Shown piece after piece: positions 3,679 through 56,062 of a DNA stretch of 64,000 nt (positions within the stretch are counted from its first letter, which is position 1; every line of letters begins with the position of its first letter). A model generated the notes under the pieces. It was not told the origin of the DNA and did not search any database. It saw only the letters and a list, made by a program, of their open reading frames with translations. The stretch spans positions 9,248-73,247 of the forward strand of contig JBAQNN010000002.1 of assembly GCA_049303835.1 (NCBI GenBank), written 5' to 3'. The stretch is from Minisyncoccia bacterium (GTDB taxonomy: Bacteria > Patescibacteriota > Minisyncoccia > Phycocordibacterales > UBA9973). The position numbers were made by a program, and so were the translations under genes.

Positions 3679-6313
<2,635 letters not shown>

Positions 6314-6314
6314 A

Positions 6315-6863
6315 TTATTCTGTCCAATTAAATAAATTTTCCGAAAAAGTCACATCATACTGACCCGAGCCTTGCGTCCATGAAACAGTAGAAAATATTT
6401 TAATATTATCGGCTGATACTGTCTCCATGTAAACAGTGCGCACAAAACCCGAATCAACACCAATAGAATTGGTATTATAATTCCCATTTTGTTCATACAA
6501 TTTACATTGGTTACTGTGAGTTGTACATACAAATACATTCTGAGGAAATAAAGTAACATCAAAACCACATCTATTGGCTAAAGTGCATGAAGATATCTTG
6601 GTTTTAAAATTATTCCACCCACCAGGAAGAGTATATAGTGCGTTTGTATCTCTCATGTTTCTGATATATTCTATACCCTCTTGGGCAAGGTAACCGGCCA
6701 CCGTTTTCTTTTTGGCATATCCGGTGTCTGAAATTCCTTTAGATAAGACAGACAGTAAACCCAGAATTGATACAGTGAAAATAGAAATGGCTACCAGGGT
6801 CTCCACCAGGGTAAAACCTTTTTCTCCTCTACCTTTTTTATTTTTTTTAAAAAATAATTTCAT
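6315..6863 (-). CDS. Type IV minor pilin (prepilin-type N-terminal cleavage/methylation domain)
   Basis: GFTLVETLVAISIFTVSILGL class III signal peptide. Confidence 0.6.
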   Translation of the reverse strand: MKLFFKKNKKGRGEKGFTLVETLVAISIFTVSILGLLSVLSKGISDTGYAKKKTVAGYLAQEGIEYIRNMRDTNALYTLPGGWNNFKTKISSCTLANRCGFDVTLFPQNVFVCTTHSNQCKLYEQNGNYNTNSIGVDSGFVRTVYMETVSADNIKIFSTVSWTQGSGQYDVTFSENLFNWTE

Positions 6864-20425: not shown

Positions 20426-20450
20426 GGCAATACTATAACACAAAACCCTG

Positions 20451-20539
20451 CGGAGCCGGACGGATTCGAACCGTCGAGGGGTTTTGAAGCCCCTGCCTCT
20501 TTAGCAAAGAGGTACGTTAGACCACTCTGACACGGCTCC
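20451..20539 (-). tRNA. tRNA-Ser (anticodon GCT), type II
   Basis: Acceptor GGAGCCG/CGGCTCC, anticodon arm CCTCT-TTGCTAA-AGAGG, long variable arm, T-arm GACGG-TTCGAAT-CCGTC. CCA not encoded. Confidence 0.8.
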
Positions 20540-20629
20540 GTACGTAATTAAATAATTACTTAATTACGTAGTTACTCTAGCATATTTGTTTCATTTTTCC
20601 ATTTTTCTGCTATACTCCTTTTAAGTTTA

Positions 20630-20744
20630 GGAGAGATGGGTGAGATGGGCAAGGAGGCAACTGCTTGCCTCCGAGCCGGCACGAAGTGCAGGCCACGAAC
20701 CCATCGAATCGCGCAAGCGACTCCGTTTAAGCGGAGCTAATATA
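20630..20744 (+). other. tRNA-like fragment: duplicate of the first 15 nt of the downstream tRNA, then a ~100-nt GC-rich structured segment
   Basis: GGAGAGATGGGTGAG is identical to the 5' end of the tRNA at 20746. It is followed by an 8-bp stem GGAGGCAA-CTGC-TTGCCTCC and the hairpin GACTCCG-TTTAA-GCGGAGC. Confidence 0.3.
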
Positions 20745-20745
20745 C

Positions 20746-20835
20746 GGAGAGATGGGTGAGTGGCTTAAACCAACAGTTTACTAAACTGTCGTCCCCTTAA
20801 AAGGACCGAGGGTTCGAATCCCTCTCTCTCCGCCA
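20746..20835 (+). tRNA. Type II tRNA (long variable arm) with an atypical anticodon loop. The standard cloverleaf gives anticodon ACT (Ser-like); a one-nt register shift gives CTA
   Basis: Acceptor GGAGAGA/TCTCTCC, anticodon hairpin ACAGT-TTACTAA-ACTGT, variable arm CGTCCCCTTAAAAGGACC, T-arm GAGGG-TTCGAAT-CCCTC, encoded CCA. Confidence 0.55.
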
Positions 20836-28294: not shown

Positions 28295-28468
28295 GTGTGA
28301 GTCATTATACATGAATTTGGCAAAAAATGACCAGTACTTTTCACCAATTTTGACAAAAGAAAACACTAAAAAAAAGAAGACAAGAGCTAGGCGCTCCGAC
28401 CGAGTATTTGTAAGCTCAAAAGACGACAGTCCTTGAAATAAATTCAACCAGGTATAAACTAATTTTTG

Positions 28469-28542
28469 TCCGCGTGCCACGATTCGAACGTGGGACCCTC
28501 GAGGTATAAGCTCGATGCTCTAACCAACTGAGCTACACGCGG
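28469..28542 (-). tRNA. tRNA-Ile (anticodon TAT), 74 nt, class I
   Basis: Acceptor CCGCGTG/CACGCGG, D-arm GCTC-AGTTGGTTA-GAGC, anticodon arm TCGAG-CTTATAC-CTCGA, T-arm CCACG-TTCGAAT-CGTGG. CCA not encoded. Confidence 0.65.
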
Positions 28543-32343: not shown

Positions 32344-32745
32344 TGGTGGAGATGGGGGAAATCGAATCCCCGTGCAGAAGGTTTTTGTAAAGAAGTCTAC
32401 ATACATAGCGCGCTTTTTTGTTTAGGTTAAAAAATTCTTAAGCGAGCCAAATATTTTTTAACCGATTCTCTTTGTTTCGGGAGAAAGCCGAGAAATTCTG
32501 TCCCCTATCCCGATAATGTTATGCCTCGTCTTATATATCGGAAGTCTATAAGAGAGACACGAGTTTACGCGAAAGCGGAAACTCGAGCGAAAGCAAAGTC
32601 ATTCATACCGAAGTATGGAGAGACTGCTACTTTCACCTTGGAAGCTAATTTTGCAATTAAGCTATTGAACGAATTTTTACGAGGTTACGTCCATGCTCGG
32701 TATGCATCAATGACAAAAGGCCGACTGTCTATGCCTGGCATCCCC
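32344..32745 (-). ncRNA. ssrA: tmRNA (SsrA)
   Basis: 5' GGGGATGCC pairs with 3' ..GGGGATTCGATTTCCCCCATCTCCACCA, a tRNA-like acceptor/T-arm. An internal ORF-like tag frame ends ..GCT TTC GCG TAA (..AFA*). It lies immediately upstream of smpB. Confidence 0.75.
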
Positions 32746-51492: not shown

Positions 51493-52218
51493 CTAATCAG
51501 TTTTTAATTTACTATCTTTCCCACCCTCAGAATCTGGAGTCAAGGTATTGTGGGTAGCTTTCTTGTCTGCAAAAATCTTTCCGCGGTAAATCCACACCTT
51601 GATGCCAACAACACCATATGAAAGAGTGGCTCGTTCACGTTTGAAATCTATATCTGCACGAAAAGTCTGAAGTGGAATACTTCCACGCTTGAGTTCTTCC
51701 GTGCGAGCGATTTCAGCTCCACCCAGACGACCGGAGAGCACCACTCTGGCACCCTCTACCCCGCGGGCCGTCATTACTTTTTCAATAATCTGCTTGATGA
51801 CTCGGCGATAAGGCATTCTTTTTTCCAATCCTTCAGCAATCATGTATGCGACGATTGCAGCGTCAGCTTCTGGATTCGCGATTTCCACGATTTCCAATTT
51901 GAAATCTTCCGGACGTGGAAGCTTTAATTTATCCATCTTTTTCAAAATATCTTCCTTCAGCTTGGTAGCTCCCTCGCCGTTTCTGCCTATCAACAATCCC
52001 GGGCGAGAAGTCTTGATGATAAAACGAGTAGCTTTTCGGCTTCTTTCAATCTCTATGCTGGAAATATACATTCCACGCAATTTCTTTTCCAAATATTGAC
52101 GAACCAAAACATCCCCCTTAAGATAGGCAACATATTTTTTAGGATCAGCAAACCAGCGAGACTTCCAATCTCTTAATATAATCAATCTATGTGCATATGG
52201 GTGAACTATTTTTGACAT
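51493..52218 (-). CDS. rpsC: 30S ribosomal protein S3
   Basis: KH and S3-C domains, MSKIVHPYAHRL. Confidence 0.9.
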   Translation of the reverse strand: MSKIVHPYAHRLIILRDWKSRWFADPKKYVAYLKGDVLVRQYLEKKLRGMYISSIEIERSRKATRFIIKTSRPGLLIGRNGEGATKLKEDILKKMDKLKLPRPEDFKLEIVEIANPEADAAIVAYMIAEGLEKRMPYRRVIKQIIEKVMTARGVEGARVVLSGRLGGAEIARTEELKRGSIPLQTFRADIDFKRERATLSYGVVGIKVWIYRGKIFADKKATHNTLTPDSEGGKDSKLKTD

Positions 52219-52219
52219 A

Positions 52220-52609
52220 TTATTTCTTTATTACTTTTTTAGCTTTTACTGCTTTTTCTTTTTTAATAGTCTTTTTAACAGGCATTACTTTTTCTGCCAA
52301 AAGAAGAGTCAGGTGGCTGGTACGTTTATTGATACGATGCCCAGAACCCATAGCTGCCGGCATCATTCTCTTCATCACAATTCCTTTATCTACTCTCAAT
52401 TCTTTTATAAATAAATTTTCCATCTCTACTCCCATTTGTTTTGCATTGGCGACGGCAGACAAAAGAAGCTTCTTGATAGGAAGTCCGGCACGTTTAGCCA
52501 AAAAATCAAGCTCGGCGATAGCTTCTGTTACATTTTTTCCTTTGATCAATCCAGCCACAAGGCGGACTTTTCTGGGAGACTGTCTGTAATTTTTTAAAAA
52601 TGCTTTCAT
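52220..52609 (-). CDS. rplV: 50S ribosomal protein L22
   Basis: MKAFLKNYRQSPRKVRLVAGLIKG. Confidence 0.9.
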   Translation of the reverse strand: MKAFLKNYRQSPRKVRLVAGLIKGKNVTEAIAELDFLAKRAGLPIKKLLLSAVANAKQMGVEMENLFIKELRVDKGIVMKRMMPAAMGSGHRINKRTSHLTLLLAEKVMPVKKTIKKEKAVKAKKVIKK

Positions 52610-52690
52610 ATTTGTAATTCAAATTTATTTTTTCTATCTATTTCTTATTTGAGACTATAACTAATTTTTTAAAAATGCTTTCATATTTTT

Positions 52691-53047
52691 TTATTTTTTA
52701 TCACCTCCTTTTGCATCTGTTGCGGCTGCAGTGGCGGACTTAGCTTGAGCTATTTCAGCTTCTTTCTTCTTCATTTCAAGTTCTTTCTGCATCTTTCCTC
52801 CGTGTTTCATGAATTTCTTGGTTGGAGAAAATTCTCCCAGTCTGTGCCCAACCATATCTTCAGTGACAAGCACTTCCACGTGCGTTTTTCCATTGTAAAC
52901 ACCAAAAGTAAAACCGAGCATCTCCGGAGAGATGACACAAGCACGCTTCCAAGTCTTCACCATCGGTGTTTGAAGCGGGTTTTTTCCGGCAATCTTTTTC
53001 AAAAGCCTTTCGTCAACATTTAATCCTTTTTTGATTGATCTTGTCAT
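52691..53047 (-). CDS. rpsS: 30S ribosomal protein S19 with a ~25-aa Lys/Ala-rich C-terminal extension
   Basis: GLNVDERLLKKIAGKNPLQTPMVKTWKRACVISPEMLGFTFGVYNGKTHV. Confidence 0.9.
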   Translation of the reverse strand: MTRSIKKGLNVDERLLKKIAGKNPLQTPMVKTWKRACVISPEMLGFTFGVYNGKTHVEVLVTEDMVGHRLGEFSPTKKFMKHGGKMQKELEMKKKEAEIAQAKSATAAATDAKGGDKK

Positions 53048-53076
53048 AAAAAATAGCTCTTAACGAGCTTGGTTTT

Positions 53077-53104
53077 ATAATAGCAAATTTAATCTTAATG
53101 TCAA
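53077..53104 (-). promoter_or_regulatory. Near-consensus sigma70-like promoter (TTGACA-N16-TATTAT) just upstream of rpsS
   Basis: Minus strand reads TTGACATTAAGATTAAATTTGCTATTAT. Confidence 0.4.
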
Positions 53105-53223
53105 CTAGATTCTAAAAGACCATTGTAATAAAAAGCTCAAATAAAAAAATGTCAAATTAAAATACTGAAGCCCCAGAACACCGTTGTGTGTTCTGGGGCA
53201 TGATAGTTTCGGCTTGGGAGATT

Positions 53224-53391
53224 TTACTCCCTCGCCGGATGTGCCTCCACGACGGACCCGAACGTGAAACGCTCACAGTCGGTGTGGAAGCAGAAGAACC
53301 GTGGGTGACGGACTCCGATCTCCGGCCTCTTGAGCTTGTTCCAGCAGATTCGCGGCTTCTTGGTTTCGGGGCGAGCGGGGATCTTCTTCAT
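53224..53391 (-). CDS. Small ORF 4 of the GC-rich cassette (55 aa, Cys-rich: CWNK..CFHTDC). It may instead start at 53472, which would add CLLLC
   Basis: SD AGAAGGAGGT 7 nt upstream. The ATG overlaps the ORF 3 stop as ATGA (translational coupling). Confidence 0.45.
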   Translation of the reverse strand: MKKIPARPETKKPRICWNKLKRPEIGVRHPRFFCFHTDCERFTFGSVVEAHPARE

Positions 53392-53552
53392 TGAGCGACC
53401 TCCTTCTCTGTTGCCCAGAATTTTGCCTCCCTCACAAAGAAGGAGACAGTCTGCCTGTTTTTGCTCAGCCATTCCAACAGATAGAACCTGTCGTCTGCTT
53501 GGTGTCTCCTTTCTTCTCTGATTCTCCTTCTGCGTTCCCCCTTTTTACTCAT
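53388..53552 (-). CDS. Small ORF 3 of the GC-rich cassette (54 aa, Arg-rich N-terminus MSKKGERRRRIREERR)
   Basis: GAGG 7 nt upstream, GC-rich codons. Follows ORF 2 after 10 nt. Confidence 0.4.
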   Translation of the reverse strand: MSKKGERRRRIREERRHQADDRFYLLEWLSKNRQTVSFFVREAKFWATEKEVAQ

Positions 53553-53562
53553 GGGAACCTCG

Positions 53563-53805
53563 CTAGAATATGCGACGCATGATCTTGAGATCGTGCTCCC
53601 GGCACTCTTCATCGTAAGAACGAAGATCTTCTCCGAGGACCTCAGCCAGCTCGGAGAAAAGCGACCTTTCCTTCCTGAGAACAGGGTGCCACTTCGGCGG
53701 CCGAAGTGAAGGCACGCGCCTGAGCTCGGTTACCACATCCTCCTTTCTTTTCTGTTCTGGCTTCTTCAGGAACGGATTCTCTTTTCTTGTTTTTCCCACT
53801 GTCAT
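53563..53805 (-). CDS. Small ORF 2 of the GC-rich cassette (80 aa, basic/acidic)
   Basis: Perfect SD GGAGGAAGTTC-ATG, preceded by a promoter-like TTGCTT-N17-TAAATC. Confidence 0.45.
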   Translation of the reverse strand: MTVGKTRKENPFLKKPEQKRKEDVVTELRRVPSLRPPKWHPVLRKERSLFSELAEVLGEDLRSYDEECREHDLKIMRRIF

Positions 53806-54035
53806 GAACTTCCTCCTCTGTTTATGATTTAAACATATATTCTGAAAAAAGCAAGGAAAAAACAATCCTAAAAAAAGAGCCCCAGGACCTGCGACAATTG
53901 CTGTCGAGGTCTCCCGAGGCTATAGGGTGTGGTCGGTCTTAAGCCTACCGACCATTTTTAGCGGACTGGGAATCCGCTTGCGAGGTGGGGTTCCTCGCGA
54001 TGCAGCTCAAGAGGTTTCCCTCCGAGCACCCTTCT

Positions 54036-54158
54036 TTACTCTTCGTCCTCCCTCCGAAGAAGAAGGTTGCGAACTTCTTGTTCGCCTTGACGGCGATCCC
54101 CCCTTCGGGAACCCTTCTTGGCTATCGCCACCTTCTTCTTCTTGTCCTGGTTGGACAT
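54036..54158 (-). CDS. Small ORF 1 of the GC-rich cassette (40 aa, MSNQDKKKKVAIAKKGSRRGDRRQGEQEVRNLLLRREDEE)
   Basis: SD GGAGGTGCGAC-ATG, preceded by TTGCGT-N16-TATAGT and followed by a terminator hairpin. Confidence 0.35.
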   Translation of the reverse strand: MSNQDKKKKVAIAKKGSRRGDRRQGEQEVRNLLLRREDEE

Positions 54159-54255
54159 GTCGCACCTCCGTTAAAAACTATACCACTTTTTCAAGATAAC
54201 GCAACACGTATCAAAAACACCCAGACGAAACCTGGGTGTTTTTAGAAAATGTATT

Positions 54256-55095
54256 TTATTTATTCTTTCCGGTCTTCCTACGAGAGACAATAAATATATT
54301 TGAGTATTTCTTTGGATGACGGCTCTTTCTTCCTCCGGTAACCTTTCCCCACATTGTTTTCGGTCTCTTAGTTCCGCGTCCTTGTCTACCTTCTCCTCCT
54401 CCGTATGGATGGTCTACAGGGTTCATCGCCGTACCACGAACAGTCGGACGAATTCCCTTCCAACGACTGCGTCCGGCCTTGCCGTAATTTTCTAAGTGAT
54501 GTTCTTCATTTGAAACTGTACCGACACAAGCCCAACAATTTTCATTTATTTTTCGAACTTCTGTAGAAGGCATTTTCAAATTTGTATATCCATCGGCATT
54601 GGCCACCACCTGAGCGAAAATTCCTGCGGAACGTCCTATCTTTGCACCACCCATCGGTTTGATTTCAATATTATAAACAAAAGTTCCAACCGGAATATTT
54701 CTAAGCGGTAATCTGTTACCTGCTTCTAGTGGAGCTTTCTCGGAAACAATAAAGCTGCTTCCAGCTTTCACAGATTTTGGCAAAACTACATATCTTTTCT
54801 CTCCATCCTTATAAACTGCCAACCCGATAAAAGCCGAACGATTTGGATCGTATTCAACGGATTTTATCTTCGCTGGAATATCTTTTTTGTCGTATAAAAA
54901 ATCAACGAGTCTGTACAGACGCTTGTGTCCGCTGCCCTTGTGTCTCATAGTGATACGTCCTTGGCTATTTCTACCTACGGCACGCTTAAAACCATAAGTG
55001 AGAGACTTGAGTGGAGTGGATGTGGTAATAACTCCCCGGTAGTTCACATTGGTCATCTGTCTTCTTGATTTGCTTGTGGGTTTGTATGTTTTCAT
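54256..55095 (-). CDS. rplB: 50S ribosomal protein L2
   Basis: GRNSQGRITMRHKGSGHKRLYR, GGGEGRQGRG. Confidence 0.9.
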   Translation of the reverse strand: MKTYKPTSKSRRQMTNVNYRGVITTSTPLKSLTYGFKRAVGRNSQGRITMRHKGSGHKRLYRLVDFLYDKKDIPAKIKSVEYDPNRSAFIGLAVYKDGEKRYVVLPKSVKAGSSFIVSEKAPLEAGNRLPLRNIPVGTFVYNIEIKPMGGAKIGRSAGIFAQVVANADGYTNLKMPSTEVRKINENCWACVGTVSNEEHHLENYGKAGRSRWKGIRPTVRGTAMNPVDHPYGGGEGRQGRGTKRPKTMWGKVTGGRKSRHPKKYSNIFIVSRRKTGKNK

Positions 55096-55098
55096 AAA

Positions 55099-55371
55099 CT
55101 AAATAAATTCTATCTTGTCTCCTTTCTTTAAATAAACAAAAGCCTTGCGTCCGCCACCCCTTATTCCTTCTTTGCCTTTAGACATAATTTTTTTCCTAGG
55201 CACAGGGAGAACATTTACTTTGATAGGTTTTACTTTATAGAGAGCAAAGACTGCCTTCTTTATTTCTGTCTTATTGGCATTGGCGGTAATATCAAAAGTA
55301 TACACATTTTGCTCCATAGCAAAACTTCCTTTTTCGGTCACTCTTGGATTTTTAATAATTTGCATTGTCAT
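55099..55371 (-). CDS. rplW: 50S ribosomal protein L23
   Basis: 90 aa, in the L4-L23-L2 position. Confidence 0.85.
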   Translation of the reverse strand: MTMQIIKNPRVTEKGSFAMEQNVYTFDITANANKTEIKKAVFALYKVKPIKVNVLPVPRKKIMSKGKEGIRGGGRKAFVYLKKGDKIEFI

Positions 55372-55375
55372 AAAA

Positions 55376-56062
55376 TTATCCTCTAGATTCTAGAAATTTA
55401 ACTGCCTCGGTGGGATTTTCTATCAAAAGGTATTTGTAATTTAAAACATCCATCGGATTTAAGTTCTTAAGAAAAACTATCTCAAGTTGTGGTAAATTTC
55501 GGAAACTCTTTTCTGCACTCTCGCTTCTTCCAGAAAGCGCCACCAACACTCTGGACTTTTTGGAATCCGCAAGTGGTTTAAAACCGCTTGCTTTAGCCAA
55601 ACTCTGCGCAACTTTCAAGGCGTCCTTAGTTTTGATTTTAGACAAGGCTAATGAATCCACAAAAAGTATCTCATTGTCTTTCAATTTTTTTGAAAGCACG
55701 GAAAATAGAGCTTGGGCACGCATCTTCTTGGAAATTTTTCTCTTGTAGTTTTTTTCTGCTAGTGGGCCATGCGTTACTCCTCCACCTACCCAAATCGGAC
55801 TTCTCGTAGATCCGTGTCGGGCACGTCCGGTTCCTTTTTGCTTCCAAGGCTTCTTGCCTCCGCCACGTACTTCTCCTCTATCTTTAGTATCAGCAGTTCC
55901 GGATCGTTTATTACTTCGCATCCCTTCCACTACTTGGTGTACCAAATCGGCTCGCCATTTGGCAGCAAAAACTTTTGCCGGAAGGCTTATTGTTCCAGCC
56001 TCTTCCCCTTTCTGGCTGTATATTTTTGCTGATATTTCTGTTTTTGTTTTTGCTTCTGACAT
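55376..56062 (-). CDS. rplD: 50S ribosomal protein L4
   Basis: 228 aa, RGGGKKPWKQKGTGRAR. Confidence 0.9.
   Translation of the reverse strand: MSEAKTKTEISAKIYSQKGEEAGTISLPAKVFAAKWRADLVHQVVEGMRSNKRSGTADTKDRGEVRGGGKKPWKQKGTGRARHGSTRSPIWVGGGVTHGPLAEKNYKRKISKKMRAQALFSVLSKKLKDNEILFVDSLALSKIKTKDALKVAQSLAKASGFKPLADSKKSRVLVALSGRSESAEKSFRNLPQLEIVFLKNLNPMDVLNYKYLLIENPTEAVKFLESRG

Follow-up and report, generated by a model that had tools for sequence, protein, structure and literature searches.

An exchangeable cassette of small orphan genes and a structured RNA between rplB and rpsS in a relative of Candidatus Nomurabacteria

Background

Genomic islets that vary between strains and sit between core genes at recombination hotspots are a general concept in the study of horizontal gene transfer (HGT). 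In bacteria of the Candidate Phyla Radiation (CPR), genomes are tiny and regarded as streamlined. Small RNAs (sRNAs) with C-rich loops include RsaE and RoxS, with UCCC or CCCC in their loops, and tiny ribosomal proteins (r-proteins) rich in lysine and arginine (K/R-rich) include Thx, bS22 and bL37. Here, a GC-rich cassette of about 1.05 kb is described that occupies the spacer between rplB and rpsS, in the S10 operon, within a 64 kb stretch of DNA ('the window') from a relative of Candidatus Nomurabacteria (Paceibacteria, CPR), the L2 protein of which had its best matches, 95% and 93% identical, in metagenome-assembled genomes (MAGs) of Nomurabacteria. With middling confidence, the block is interpreted as one allele of an exchangeable accessory cassette with two transcription units, making up an RNA-protein accessory or conflict module.

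Like HGT-hotspot islets, the cassette has a fixed position between core genes with unrelated content in close relatives, transfer through recombination in the flanks, and accessory or conflict genes (HicA) at the same site. It differs from them in lying inside the normally contiguous S10 operon, in a site of only 0.1-4 kb which in the Nomurabacteria subgroup holds GC-rich micro-gene units, each with its own predicted promoter and terminator. Microproteins encoded by bacterial intergenic small open reading frames (ORFs) were surveyed in 'The Cryptic Bacterial Microproteome' (PMC11188072); the cassette ORFs are likewise 40-80 codons long, lineage-restricted, without family and detectable by comparative signals only, whereas three of them form a coupled, conserved operon that is tied to a structured RNA and exchanged as an allele. 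Type II toxin-antitoxin (TA) systems such as HicAB share with the cassette a small two-gene overlap, autonomous signals, a hotspot location and a patchy distribution, but the cassette lacks homology to them, has a dispensable upstream partner, and encodes three basic proteins plus an RNA. The cassette RNA is similar to C-rich-loop and 3' UTR-derived sRNAs (UTR, untranslated region) such as RsaE/RoxS in ending at a predicted terminator, in its several hairpins with CCCC and UCCC loops and in lying at an mRNA 3' end, and unlike them in having no Rfam match and no significant pairing to the cassette's own Shine-Dalgarno (SD) regions. Finally, the cassette peptides resemble Thx, bS22 and bL37 in being small, K/R-rich and encoded beside r-protein genes, but they are not lineage-wide, have foreign codon usage and are horizontally exchanged.

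Results and discussion

Layout and authenticity of the cassette

The genes rplB (54256-55095) and rpsS (52691-53047) both lie on the minus strand and are separated by a spacer of 1,208 bp, in which the cassette has the same orientation as the operon. All elements of the preliminary description (hairpins, promoter-like boxes, four SD-led ORFs, an ATGA overlap and an rpsS promoter) were located on the minus strand, and the promoter/terminator architecture that it had ascribed to the block was borne out at the level of sequence, from which the activity of these signals is inferred. In the direction of transcription, the features are:

54213-54243, minus strand: predicted intrinsic-terminator hairpin of rplB, AAAAACACCCAG-N7-CTGGGTGTTTTT, left border of the hotspot
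54159-54204, minus strand: region of promoter-like box P1, TTGCGT (54204-54199)-N16-TATAGT (54182-54177), with a TG extended -10
54036-54158, minus strand: ORF1, 40 amino acids (aa), ATG at 54158
53868-54028, minus strand: structured RNA domain, 3' UTR or sRNA
53870-53920, minus strand: bulged hairpin and T-run (putative terminator hairpin H5, 53879-53920)
53806-53867, minus strand: region of promoter-like box P2, TTGCTT (53854-53849)-N17-TAAATC, or, in an alternative reading, N16 and TGt-TTAAAT
53563-53805, minus strand: ORF2, 80 aa
53388-53552, minus strand: ORF3, 54 aa, Arg-rich
53224-53391, minus strand: ORF4, 55 aa, containing Cys and His, its start overlapping the ORF3 stop (ATGA)
53165-53223, minus strand: 3' UTR of the cassette with terminator-like hairpin GCCCCAGAACAC-N6-GTGTTCTGGGGC (53170-53199), right border
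53048-53164, minus strand: resident rpsS control region, outside the cassette

Loci of relatives spanning rplB and rpsS are numbered from L001 onwards; L082-L090 are cassette-bearing loci from other metagenome assemblies. A Logan contig from run SRR28062869 was 100% identical to positions 54550-53151 of the window, and the same four ORFs were called in it. At the same site, other assemblies contained four further alleles of the cassette (L082/L083, L084 (identical to L087/L088), L085 and L086), together with a near-identical copy of the L084-type cassette (L089/L090). The cassette is therefore not an artefact. An assembly chimera or contaminating DNA, to which the compositional jump could have pointed, is refuted and was left with practically no probability: a check against chimerism had been proposed, and the same junctions recurred in assemblies made independently from nine or more other samples, with some contigs (L082, L084 and L087) running from rplB through the cassette into rpsS.

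A hairpin equivalent to that at 54213-54243 follows rplB in L002-L009, L082 and L084. P1, which is conserved in L082 and L084, is followed by the SD sequence GGAGGTG (GGAGG at 54169-54165), and homology to L082 on the left side continues through this sequence and stops there. The P2 region carries the SD sequence of ORF2, AGGAGG (GGAGG at 53816-53812), with 6 nt between GGAGG and ATG as in ORF1; it is AT-rich (GC 0.30), and its identity of 74-76% in all alleles is above that of the ORFs. The terminal hairpin region is 90-98% identical in three other alleles, L084 having a different hairpin with the same ends, and from 53174 onwards the sequence is homologous to L002, a relative without the cassette. 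All nine GGAGG motifs of the cassette lie on the sense strand; the -35 boxes match the consensus weakly (3-4 of 6 positions), and the T-run behind the last hairpin (53170-53199) is poor. The rpsS control region contains a TTGACA box (53150-53155) and the predicted promoter TTGACA-N16-TATTAT (53104-53077; 11 of 12 consensus matches), and is kept in 13 relatives irrespective of spacer content. Between this promoter and the ATG lies a small hairpin with a T-run, AGCTCGTTAAGAGCT (53055-53069), which is kept in all Nomurabacteria relatives (L001-L019); since it is conserved whatever the spacer contains, it is a candidate r-protein leader or attenuator.

Coding genes of the cassette

ORF2, ORF3 and ORF4 are protein-coding genes under purifying selection. 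ORF2 and ORF4 were present in five of five alleles and ORF3 in four of five, being missing from L082, in which ORF4 is intact; the check for SD-led ORFs in homologous cassettes thus came out positive, and the earlier view of these ORFs as real genes is upheld by frame-specific selection. Length differences between alleles are in frame (for example, a 20-aa insertion in ORF2 of L082 and L086), the SD boxes are retained across alleles, and the 4-nt overlap of ORF3 and ORF4 (ATGA/GTGA) is kept in 4/4. Between alleles, the proportion of synonymous differences (pS) was 0.53-0.90, that is, near saturation, and that of nonsynonymous differences (pN) was 0.14-0.45. In frame, pN/pS was 0.28-0.44 for ORF2, 0.30-0.61 for ORF3 and 0.17-0.40 for ORF4, as opposed to 0.8-1.9 (ORF2) and 0.8-4.3 (ORF4) out of frame; the shifted-frame control, in which the same nucleotide alignments were read in the two other frames, gave values of about 0.7-4 overall. 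All three ORFs thus combine frame-specific purifying selection with a conserved start and indels in multiples of three. For rplB and rpsS, the ratio of nonsynonymous to synonymous substitution rates (dN/dS) was 0.02-0.05, and dN was 0.02 for the r-proteins relative to 0.2-0.4 for the cassette proteins; by this comparison, the latter are constrained yet fast-evolving.

The four cassette proteins are all basic, with isoelectric points (pI) of 9.7-10.5. The ORF2 protein (pI 9.7) is basic and disordered at the N-terminus and has two helices at the C-terminus, and its core, VPS(L/I)xPxKWHP, is invariant; its AlphaFold2 model (predicted local distance difference test (pLDDT) score of 65) was too poor for a fold search. 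ORF3 (pI 10.5) has the C-terminal motif FFxREAxxWAT, and ORF4 (pI 10.0) starts with the invariant sequence MKKIPxRPExKKP and carries RHPRFFC-x4-C, a possible metal knuckle; its AlphaFold2 model (pLDDT 50) was unusable.

ORF1 is a hypervariable position, encoding 40, 65 and 85 aa in three alleles that cannot be aligned beyond a few N-terminal residues. The window's ORF1 peptide has a pI of 10.3, and its coding sequence contains a 17-nt inverted repeat (a long hairpin) and a duplicate of the stem of hairpin H1 of the RNA domain. The start context is conserved (promoter, GGAGGTG, and ATG 6-8 nt downstream), the frame is open from the conserved ATG to just before the RNA domain in three of three alleles (joint shuffle P ~8e-4), and each of the three single-nucleotide polymorphisms (SNPs) by which two copies of the 85-aa allele differ is synonymous. 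ORF1 is probably translated, the coding status of the window's own 40-aa version being uncertain.

These data bear on the possibility that the block represents one or more structured non-coding RNAs, with the ORFs as by-products of GC-rich sequence. Strong folding z-scores for both units, the conserved RNA domain and an ORF1 region built from a long hairpin would fit it, but frame-specific selection, in-frame indels and the conserved starts, SD boxes and overlap largely refute it for ORF2-4, and the synonymous nature of all three SNPs in the 85-aa ORF1 allele also speaks against it; we consider it hardly credible.

The structured RNA domain

The first transcription unit closes with ~160 nt (53868-54028) that constitute a conserved structured RNA, for which the comparative data are supportive. 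The predicted fold comprises a closing stem (GGGUG/CACCC) around hairpins H1-H4, followed by the terminator hairpin H5 and a U-run, and two of the loops are C-rich (AACCCCA and UUCCCAG). The folding z-score of the first unit was -5.95 in the window, and -3.1 and -6.3 for the homologous units of L082 and L084, respectively. The domain was recognisable in five of five alleles, and a covariance model built from them (R1) matched cassette alleles only; 50 related loci and the remainder of the window gave no match. In the model alignment, 82% of cells were paired, compared with 33-45% when the partners were slid, and 12 of 38 pairs changed on both sides, the observed values being reached in 0 of 500 shuffles; this covariation comes from five distinct sequences in an alignment fitted to the model, and is supportive, not conclusive. 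Rfam 15, run on 52000-55500 at an E-value threshold, gave best E-values of 0.56-0.91 with scores far below gathering, and at the gathering threshold over the whole window only chance-level matches were obtained for the cassette. Of the earlier suggestion that the block might be a structured RNA, the part that stands is thus this domain, and not the block as a whole, in which ORF2-4 are coding.

In one of the hairpins, the H4 loop of the window (53933-53955, AGGCTTAAG) is the reverse complement of that of L085 (115-137) and L086 (78-100; CTTAAGCCT), while the stem is identical; the difference reads as a hairpin 'flip' inversion.

Exchange between loci and base composition

Compared with the other alleles, the window was 87-94% identical in the flanks and 39-79% identical in the cassette interior; for the L084 cassette in particular, identity to the window was 50-64% across segments. 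The cassettes of L089/L090 and L084, on the other hand, were ~99% identical, with 12 substitutions between the SD sequence of ORF1 and the terminal hairpin, all of them outside ORF3 and ORF4, whereas rpsS of L089/L090 was 87% identical to that of L084 and 94% identical to that of the window. Since ~99% identity of the cassette is found beside 87% identity of rpsS, and the reverse, the histories of cassettes and flanks are decoupled, and cassettes therefore move by recombination. The left-hand identity breakpoint falls within P1 and the right-hand one within the rpsS promoter/leader, as would be expected from homologous recombination in conserved flanks.

An integron-type cassette, or another element mobilised by a site-specific recombinase, might be suspected from the modular, replaceable content behind a conserved promoter, the imperfect hairpin that ends each unit and the TA genes at the same site in a relative. 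In the window, however, there were no flanking direct repeats, target duplications or second cassette copy, and no recombinase of the cassette's own, the recombinase search being confined to the window. The integron core GTTRRRY was absent from the hairpins and borders (its sole copy in the block lies in the ORF1 start region, on the opposite strand), each unit bears its own promoter-like box, unlike the promoterless cassettes of integrons, and the breakpoints lie in ordinary conserved flanks. Such an element was accordingly given very little probability.

The mean GC content of 53171-54243 was 0.515, compared with 0.395 in the flanks. A GC content of 55-58% over ~1.07 kb had been described; in sliding windows this held for the 200-nt peaks (0.55-0.575), and not for the mean. 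The cassette is nevertheless the sole island of GC>=0.5 longer than 350 nt in the 64 kb; three other GC peaks were rejected as islands, being situated inside housekeeping genes (pilB/gspE-like, ftsH and rpsG). GC content at third codon positions (GC3) was 0.58-0.80 in the four ORFs, relative to 0.29-0.39 in eight neighbouring r-protein genes, in agreement with the foreign codon usage reported before. For ORF4 it was 0.66-0.80, and across all alleles 0.42-0.80. A GC1>GC2<GC3 pattern was seen in ORF1, ORF2 and ORF4, and was less clear in ORF3. Other inserts at the site in close relatives are likewise GC-richer than their genomes, and the ORF2-4 mRNA had a folding z-score of -3. Because all five alleles retain the GC excess despite saturated synonymous sites, it is maintained and is not the fading trace of a recent import. 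The proposal of horizontal acquisition is thereby split: the cassette is accessory and exchanged, as illustrated by L089/L090 and L084, but a recent arrival from a GC-rich donor is not supported. Upkeep of the GC content could be a result of selection on RNA structure, GC-biased gene conversion at the hotspot, or re-import from an unseen reservoir.

The rplB-rpsS junction as a hotspot

Among 80 species-representative genomes with a related L2, the gap between rplB and rpsS was 3-50 bp in most outgroups, and in Paceibacteria it ranged between 79 bp and over 3.7 kb. The tight junction that had been taken as the norm is thus a property of the outgroups, and not of this clade. The conserved part of the spacer is the last 60-130 nt before rpsS (promoter and small leader hairpin), the remainder being unrelated between genomes. 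As the 'empty' sites of L003, L009 and L011 keep both the terminator after rplB and the rpsS promoter, the S10 operon is split with or without an insert, and the earlier picture of an insertion breaking the operon had to be given up. In seven more distant Paceibacteria (L016, L023, L024, L028, L029, L031 and L036), a gene of the DgkA type (diacylglycerol/undecaprenol kinase) lies directly upstream of rpsS, confirmed only in L024 (PF01219, E = 3e-30) and accompanied by pyrE-, pyrF- and pyrD-like ORFs in L023 and L029; its recurrence there indicates that the split is old in the clade. The rplB-rpsS junction of Paceibacteria is a long-standing hotspot bounded by a terminator and a promoter.

Cassettes of the type found in the window were absent from the 80 relatives, including those with a 91-95% identical L2 (L001-L003). 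The closest Nomurabacteria (L001, L002, L004, L006, L008 and L015) have other GC-rich mini-units at the site, with a design of promoter-like box, GGAGG, tiny K/R-rich ORF and GC hairpin, and no homology of these to the cassette was detectable. A resemblance of P1 and P2 to the promoters of these inserts was apparent by eye but not significant in blastn-short, for which reason only a similar architecture is claimed. In L006 (4838-5873), three mini-cassettes with different ORFs lie in tandem; in the first and third, both the promoter region, CACCCAGAnCTTGCTTTATATATATATTTCTTTTAAG, and the terminator tail, CCCCATCACTATTTTTA, are duplicated, which suggests that the micro-gene units of this locus arose by local duplication and divergence.

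Absence from the nearest relatives makes a ribosomal role unlikely. Lineage-specific ribosome-associated micro-proteins, encoded inside an r-protein operon, could have been expected from the position between rplB and rpsS, from the small, basic (pI ~10) proteins disordered on their own, with a possible metal knuckle in ORF4, and from strong SD boxes and purifying selection. The earlier proposal to this effect conflicts with the missing cassette in L001-L003; foreign codon usage, insulation of the cassette from the operon by the predicted terminators, a dN ten times or more that of the r-proteins, and horizontal exchange also count against it, and we regard it as highly improbable.

In L005 (L2 90% identical), the gap (4838-6389) contains a gene for a HicA toxin (PF07927, E = 2e-8), with a 107-aa ORF without Pfam match upstream of it and a 201-aa orphan. 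A type II-like TA system, also put forward earlier, would have ORF3 as a basic DNA-binding antitoxin translationally coupled to ORF4 as a small toxin, with ORF2 and/or the RNA as accessories. The adjacency of ORF3 and ORF4 with their overlap in 4/4 alleles, the autonomous small operon in a hotspot that holds HicA in L005, and the patchy distribution and horizontal exchange are compatible with this. L082, however, lacks ORF3 and keeps an intact ORF4, contrary to obligate co-occurrence, basicity and predicted disorder are common to all three proteins, and no toxin or antitoxin match was obtained in Pfam, NCBIfam, PADLOC or PDB. As ORF3 is dispensable and homology is lacking, a classical TA pair is unlikely.

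Orphan status of the cassette genes

Profile searches with the 40-, 80-, 54- and 55-aa peptides, a route suggested in the preliminary description, assigned no family: the ORF1-ORF4 proteins had no match in Pfam, NCBIfam, PHROGs, PADLOC or PDB profiles, nor was homology to any known toxin, antitoxin or r-protein family found in these collections. In 15 billion proteins, the matches were cassette alleles only, as recovered by a word-indexed query of 5.8 billion clusters and by an exhaustive HMMER run over 1.84 billion representatives. One outside match, to a 5,932-aa protein (P0006), looked strong and was dismissed as an artefact of lysine/proline repeats (K/P/E-rich). Homologues were also sought for the micro-ORFs of L001, L002 and L006 and for the ORF1 alleles, and none were found. 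A phage or plasmid origin was rejected, blastn against phage and plasmid records and four viral-contig scans having come back empty. The three micro-protein families and the RNA motif are new, while an islet of small orphan genes at a hotspot is of a known kind.

Complete orphan status in 15 billion proteins might also indicate proto-genes, that is, young and weakly constrained ORFs without defined function, yielded by a GC-rich, stop-poor transcribed spacer in a 'safe harbour'. The unrelated K/R-rich micro-ORFs of relatives behind promoter and SD boxes, the unalignable ORF1 alleles and the H1 hairpin duplicate inside ORF1 point the same way. Against this stand the presence of ORF2 and ORF4 in five of five diverged alleles, with pN/pS of 0.17-0.44, invariant motifs and saturated synonymous sites, and the conserved organisation of the operon, which leave proto-genes a rather improbable explanation.

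Proposed organisation and role

A small RNA-protein accessory or conflict module remains our best guess. The hotspot lies where the S10 operon of Paceibacteria splits, between the rplB terminator and the rpsS promoter. In unit 1, P1 would drive the hypervariable ORF1, with an mRNA ending in the ~160-nt C-rich-loop RNA and its terminator; in unit 2, P2 would drive the translationally coupled ORF2-ORF3-ORF4, which encode small, basic, largely disordered orphans. Transfer among related Nomurabacteria would take place by homologous recombination in the conserved flanks, with P1 serving as the left and the rpsS promoter as the right exchange region. The basic proteins may be nucleic acid binders, with the RNA inherited alongside them as the most plausible partner; the small RNA-protein module so formed would serve in addiction, defence or regulation, and not in ribosomal housekeeping. 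Assignment to an accessory or conflict class is based on the diversity of the alleles, their horizontal exchange and the presence of HicA at this site in L005, the conflict-type role itself being inferred.

Several observations weigh against this interpretation. None of the proteins has homology to any defence, TA or RNA-binding family in the searches above, and the partnership of RNA and proteins is deduced from co-inheritance in five alleles only. The ORF1 alleles, not being mutually alignable, may not share one function, and the persistently high GC3 is not explained by the cassette model. When the RNA loops were compared with the cassette's ribosome-binding sites (RBSs) by RNAduplex (17 RBS windows from five alleles), z-scores ranged from -1.1 to +1.8, with no signal; an sRNA acting on the cassette's own RBSs was rejected on this null result.

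A more far-reaching version, which we rate as a long shot, would have the three basic micro-proteins, the ~160-nt RNA and the hypervariable peptide form a self-contained ribonucleoprotein, either a new class of conflict module in CPR bacteria or an exchangeable ribosome modulator. The hotspot would then be a 'nursery' of traded GC-rich micro-genes, the GC content of which is upheld by recombination-linked bias or selection on RNA structure.

Other features of the window

Downstream of the cassette, the 3' end of rpsS (52691-52780) encodes an Ala/Lys-rich C-terminal extension of uS19, which has been described as Parcubacteria-specific (PMC9297842). Through a 38-nt direct repeat (52576-52613 and 52651-52688; 89% identity at a spacing of 75 nt), the beginning of rplV is present twice together with its ATG, and the upstream copy opens a frame of seven codons followed by a stop (ATGAAAGCATTTTTAAAAAATTAG) between the rpsS stop and the true start of rplV. 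Elsewhere, ARAGORN predicted a tRNA-Ser with the unusual anticodon ACT at 20746-20835 (Rfam tRNA, 57 bits), 200 nt away from a tRNA-Ser(GCT) on the opposite strand (region 20450-20835); a second copy of the tRNA 5' end (GGAGAGATGGGTGAG) is located at 20630-20645, followed by ~100 nt of GC-rich DNA. A tRNA-Ile with the anticodon TAT, uncommon in bacteria, lies at 28468-28542, and a tmRNA gene at 32344-32745 was identified by Rfam (117 bits) and not reported by ARAGORN.

Conclusions

The analysis adds three micro-protein families and one RNA motif with comparative support. Micro-genes of this type routinely escape annotation, and several of those described here are not called in public data. A hotspot amid the most conserved operon shows where CPR bacteria, whose genomes are so small, store a flexible gene pool. 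If the cassette is indeed a conflict or ribosome-modulating module, it would represent a new system in a lineage that is experimentally near-unstudied; if it is not, it would still be a well-documented case of accessory islets of small orphan genes.

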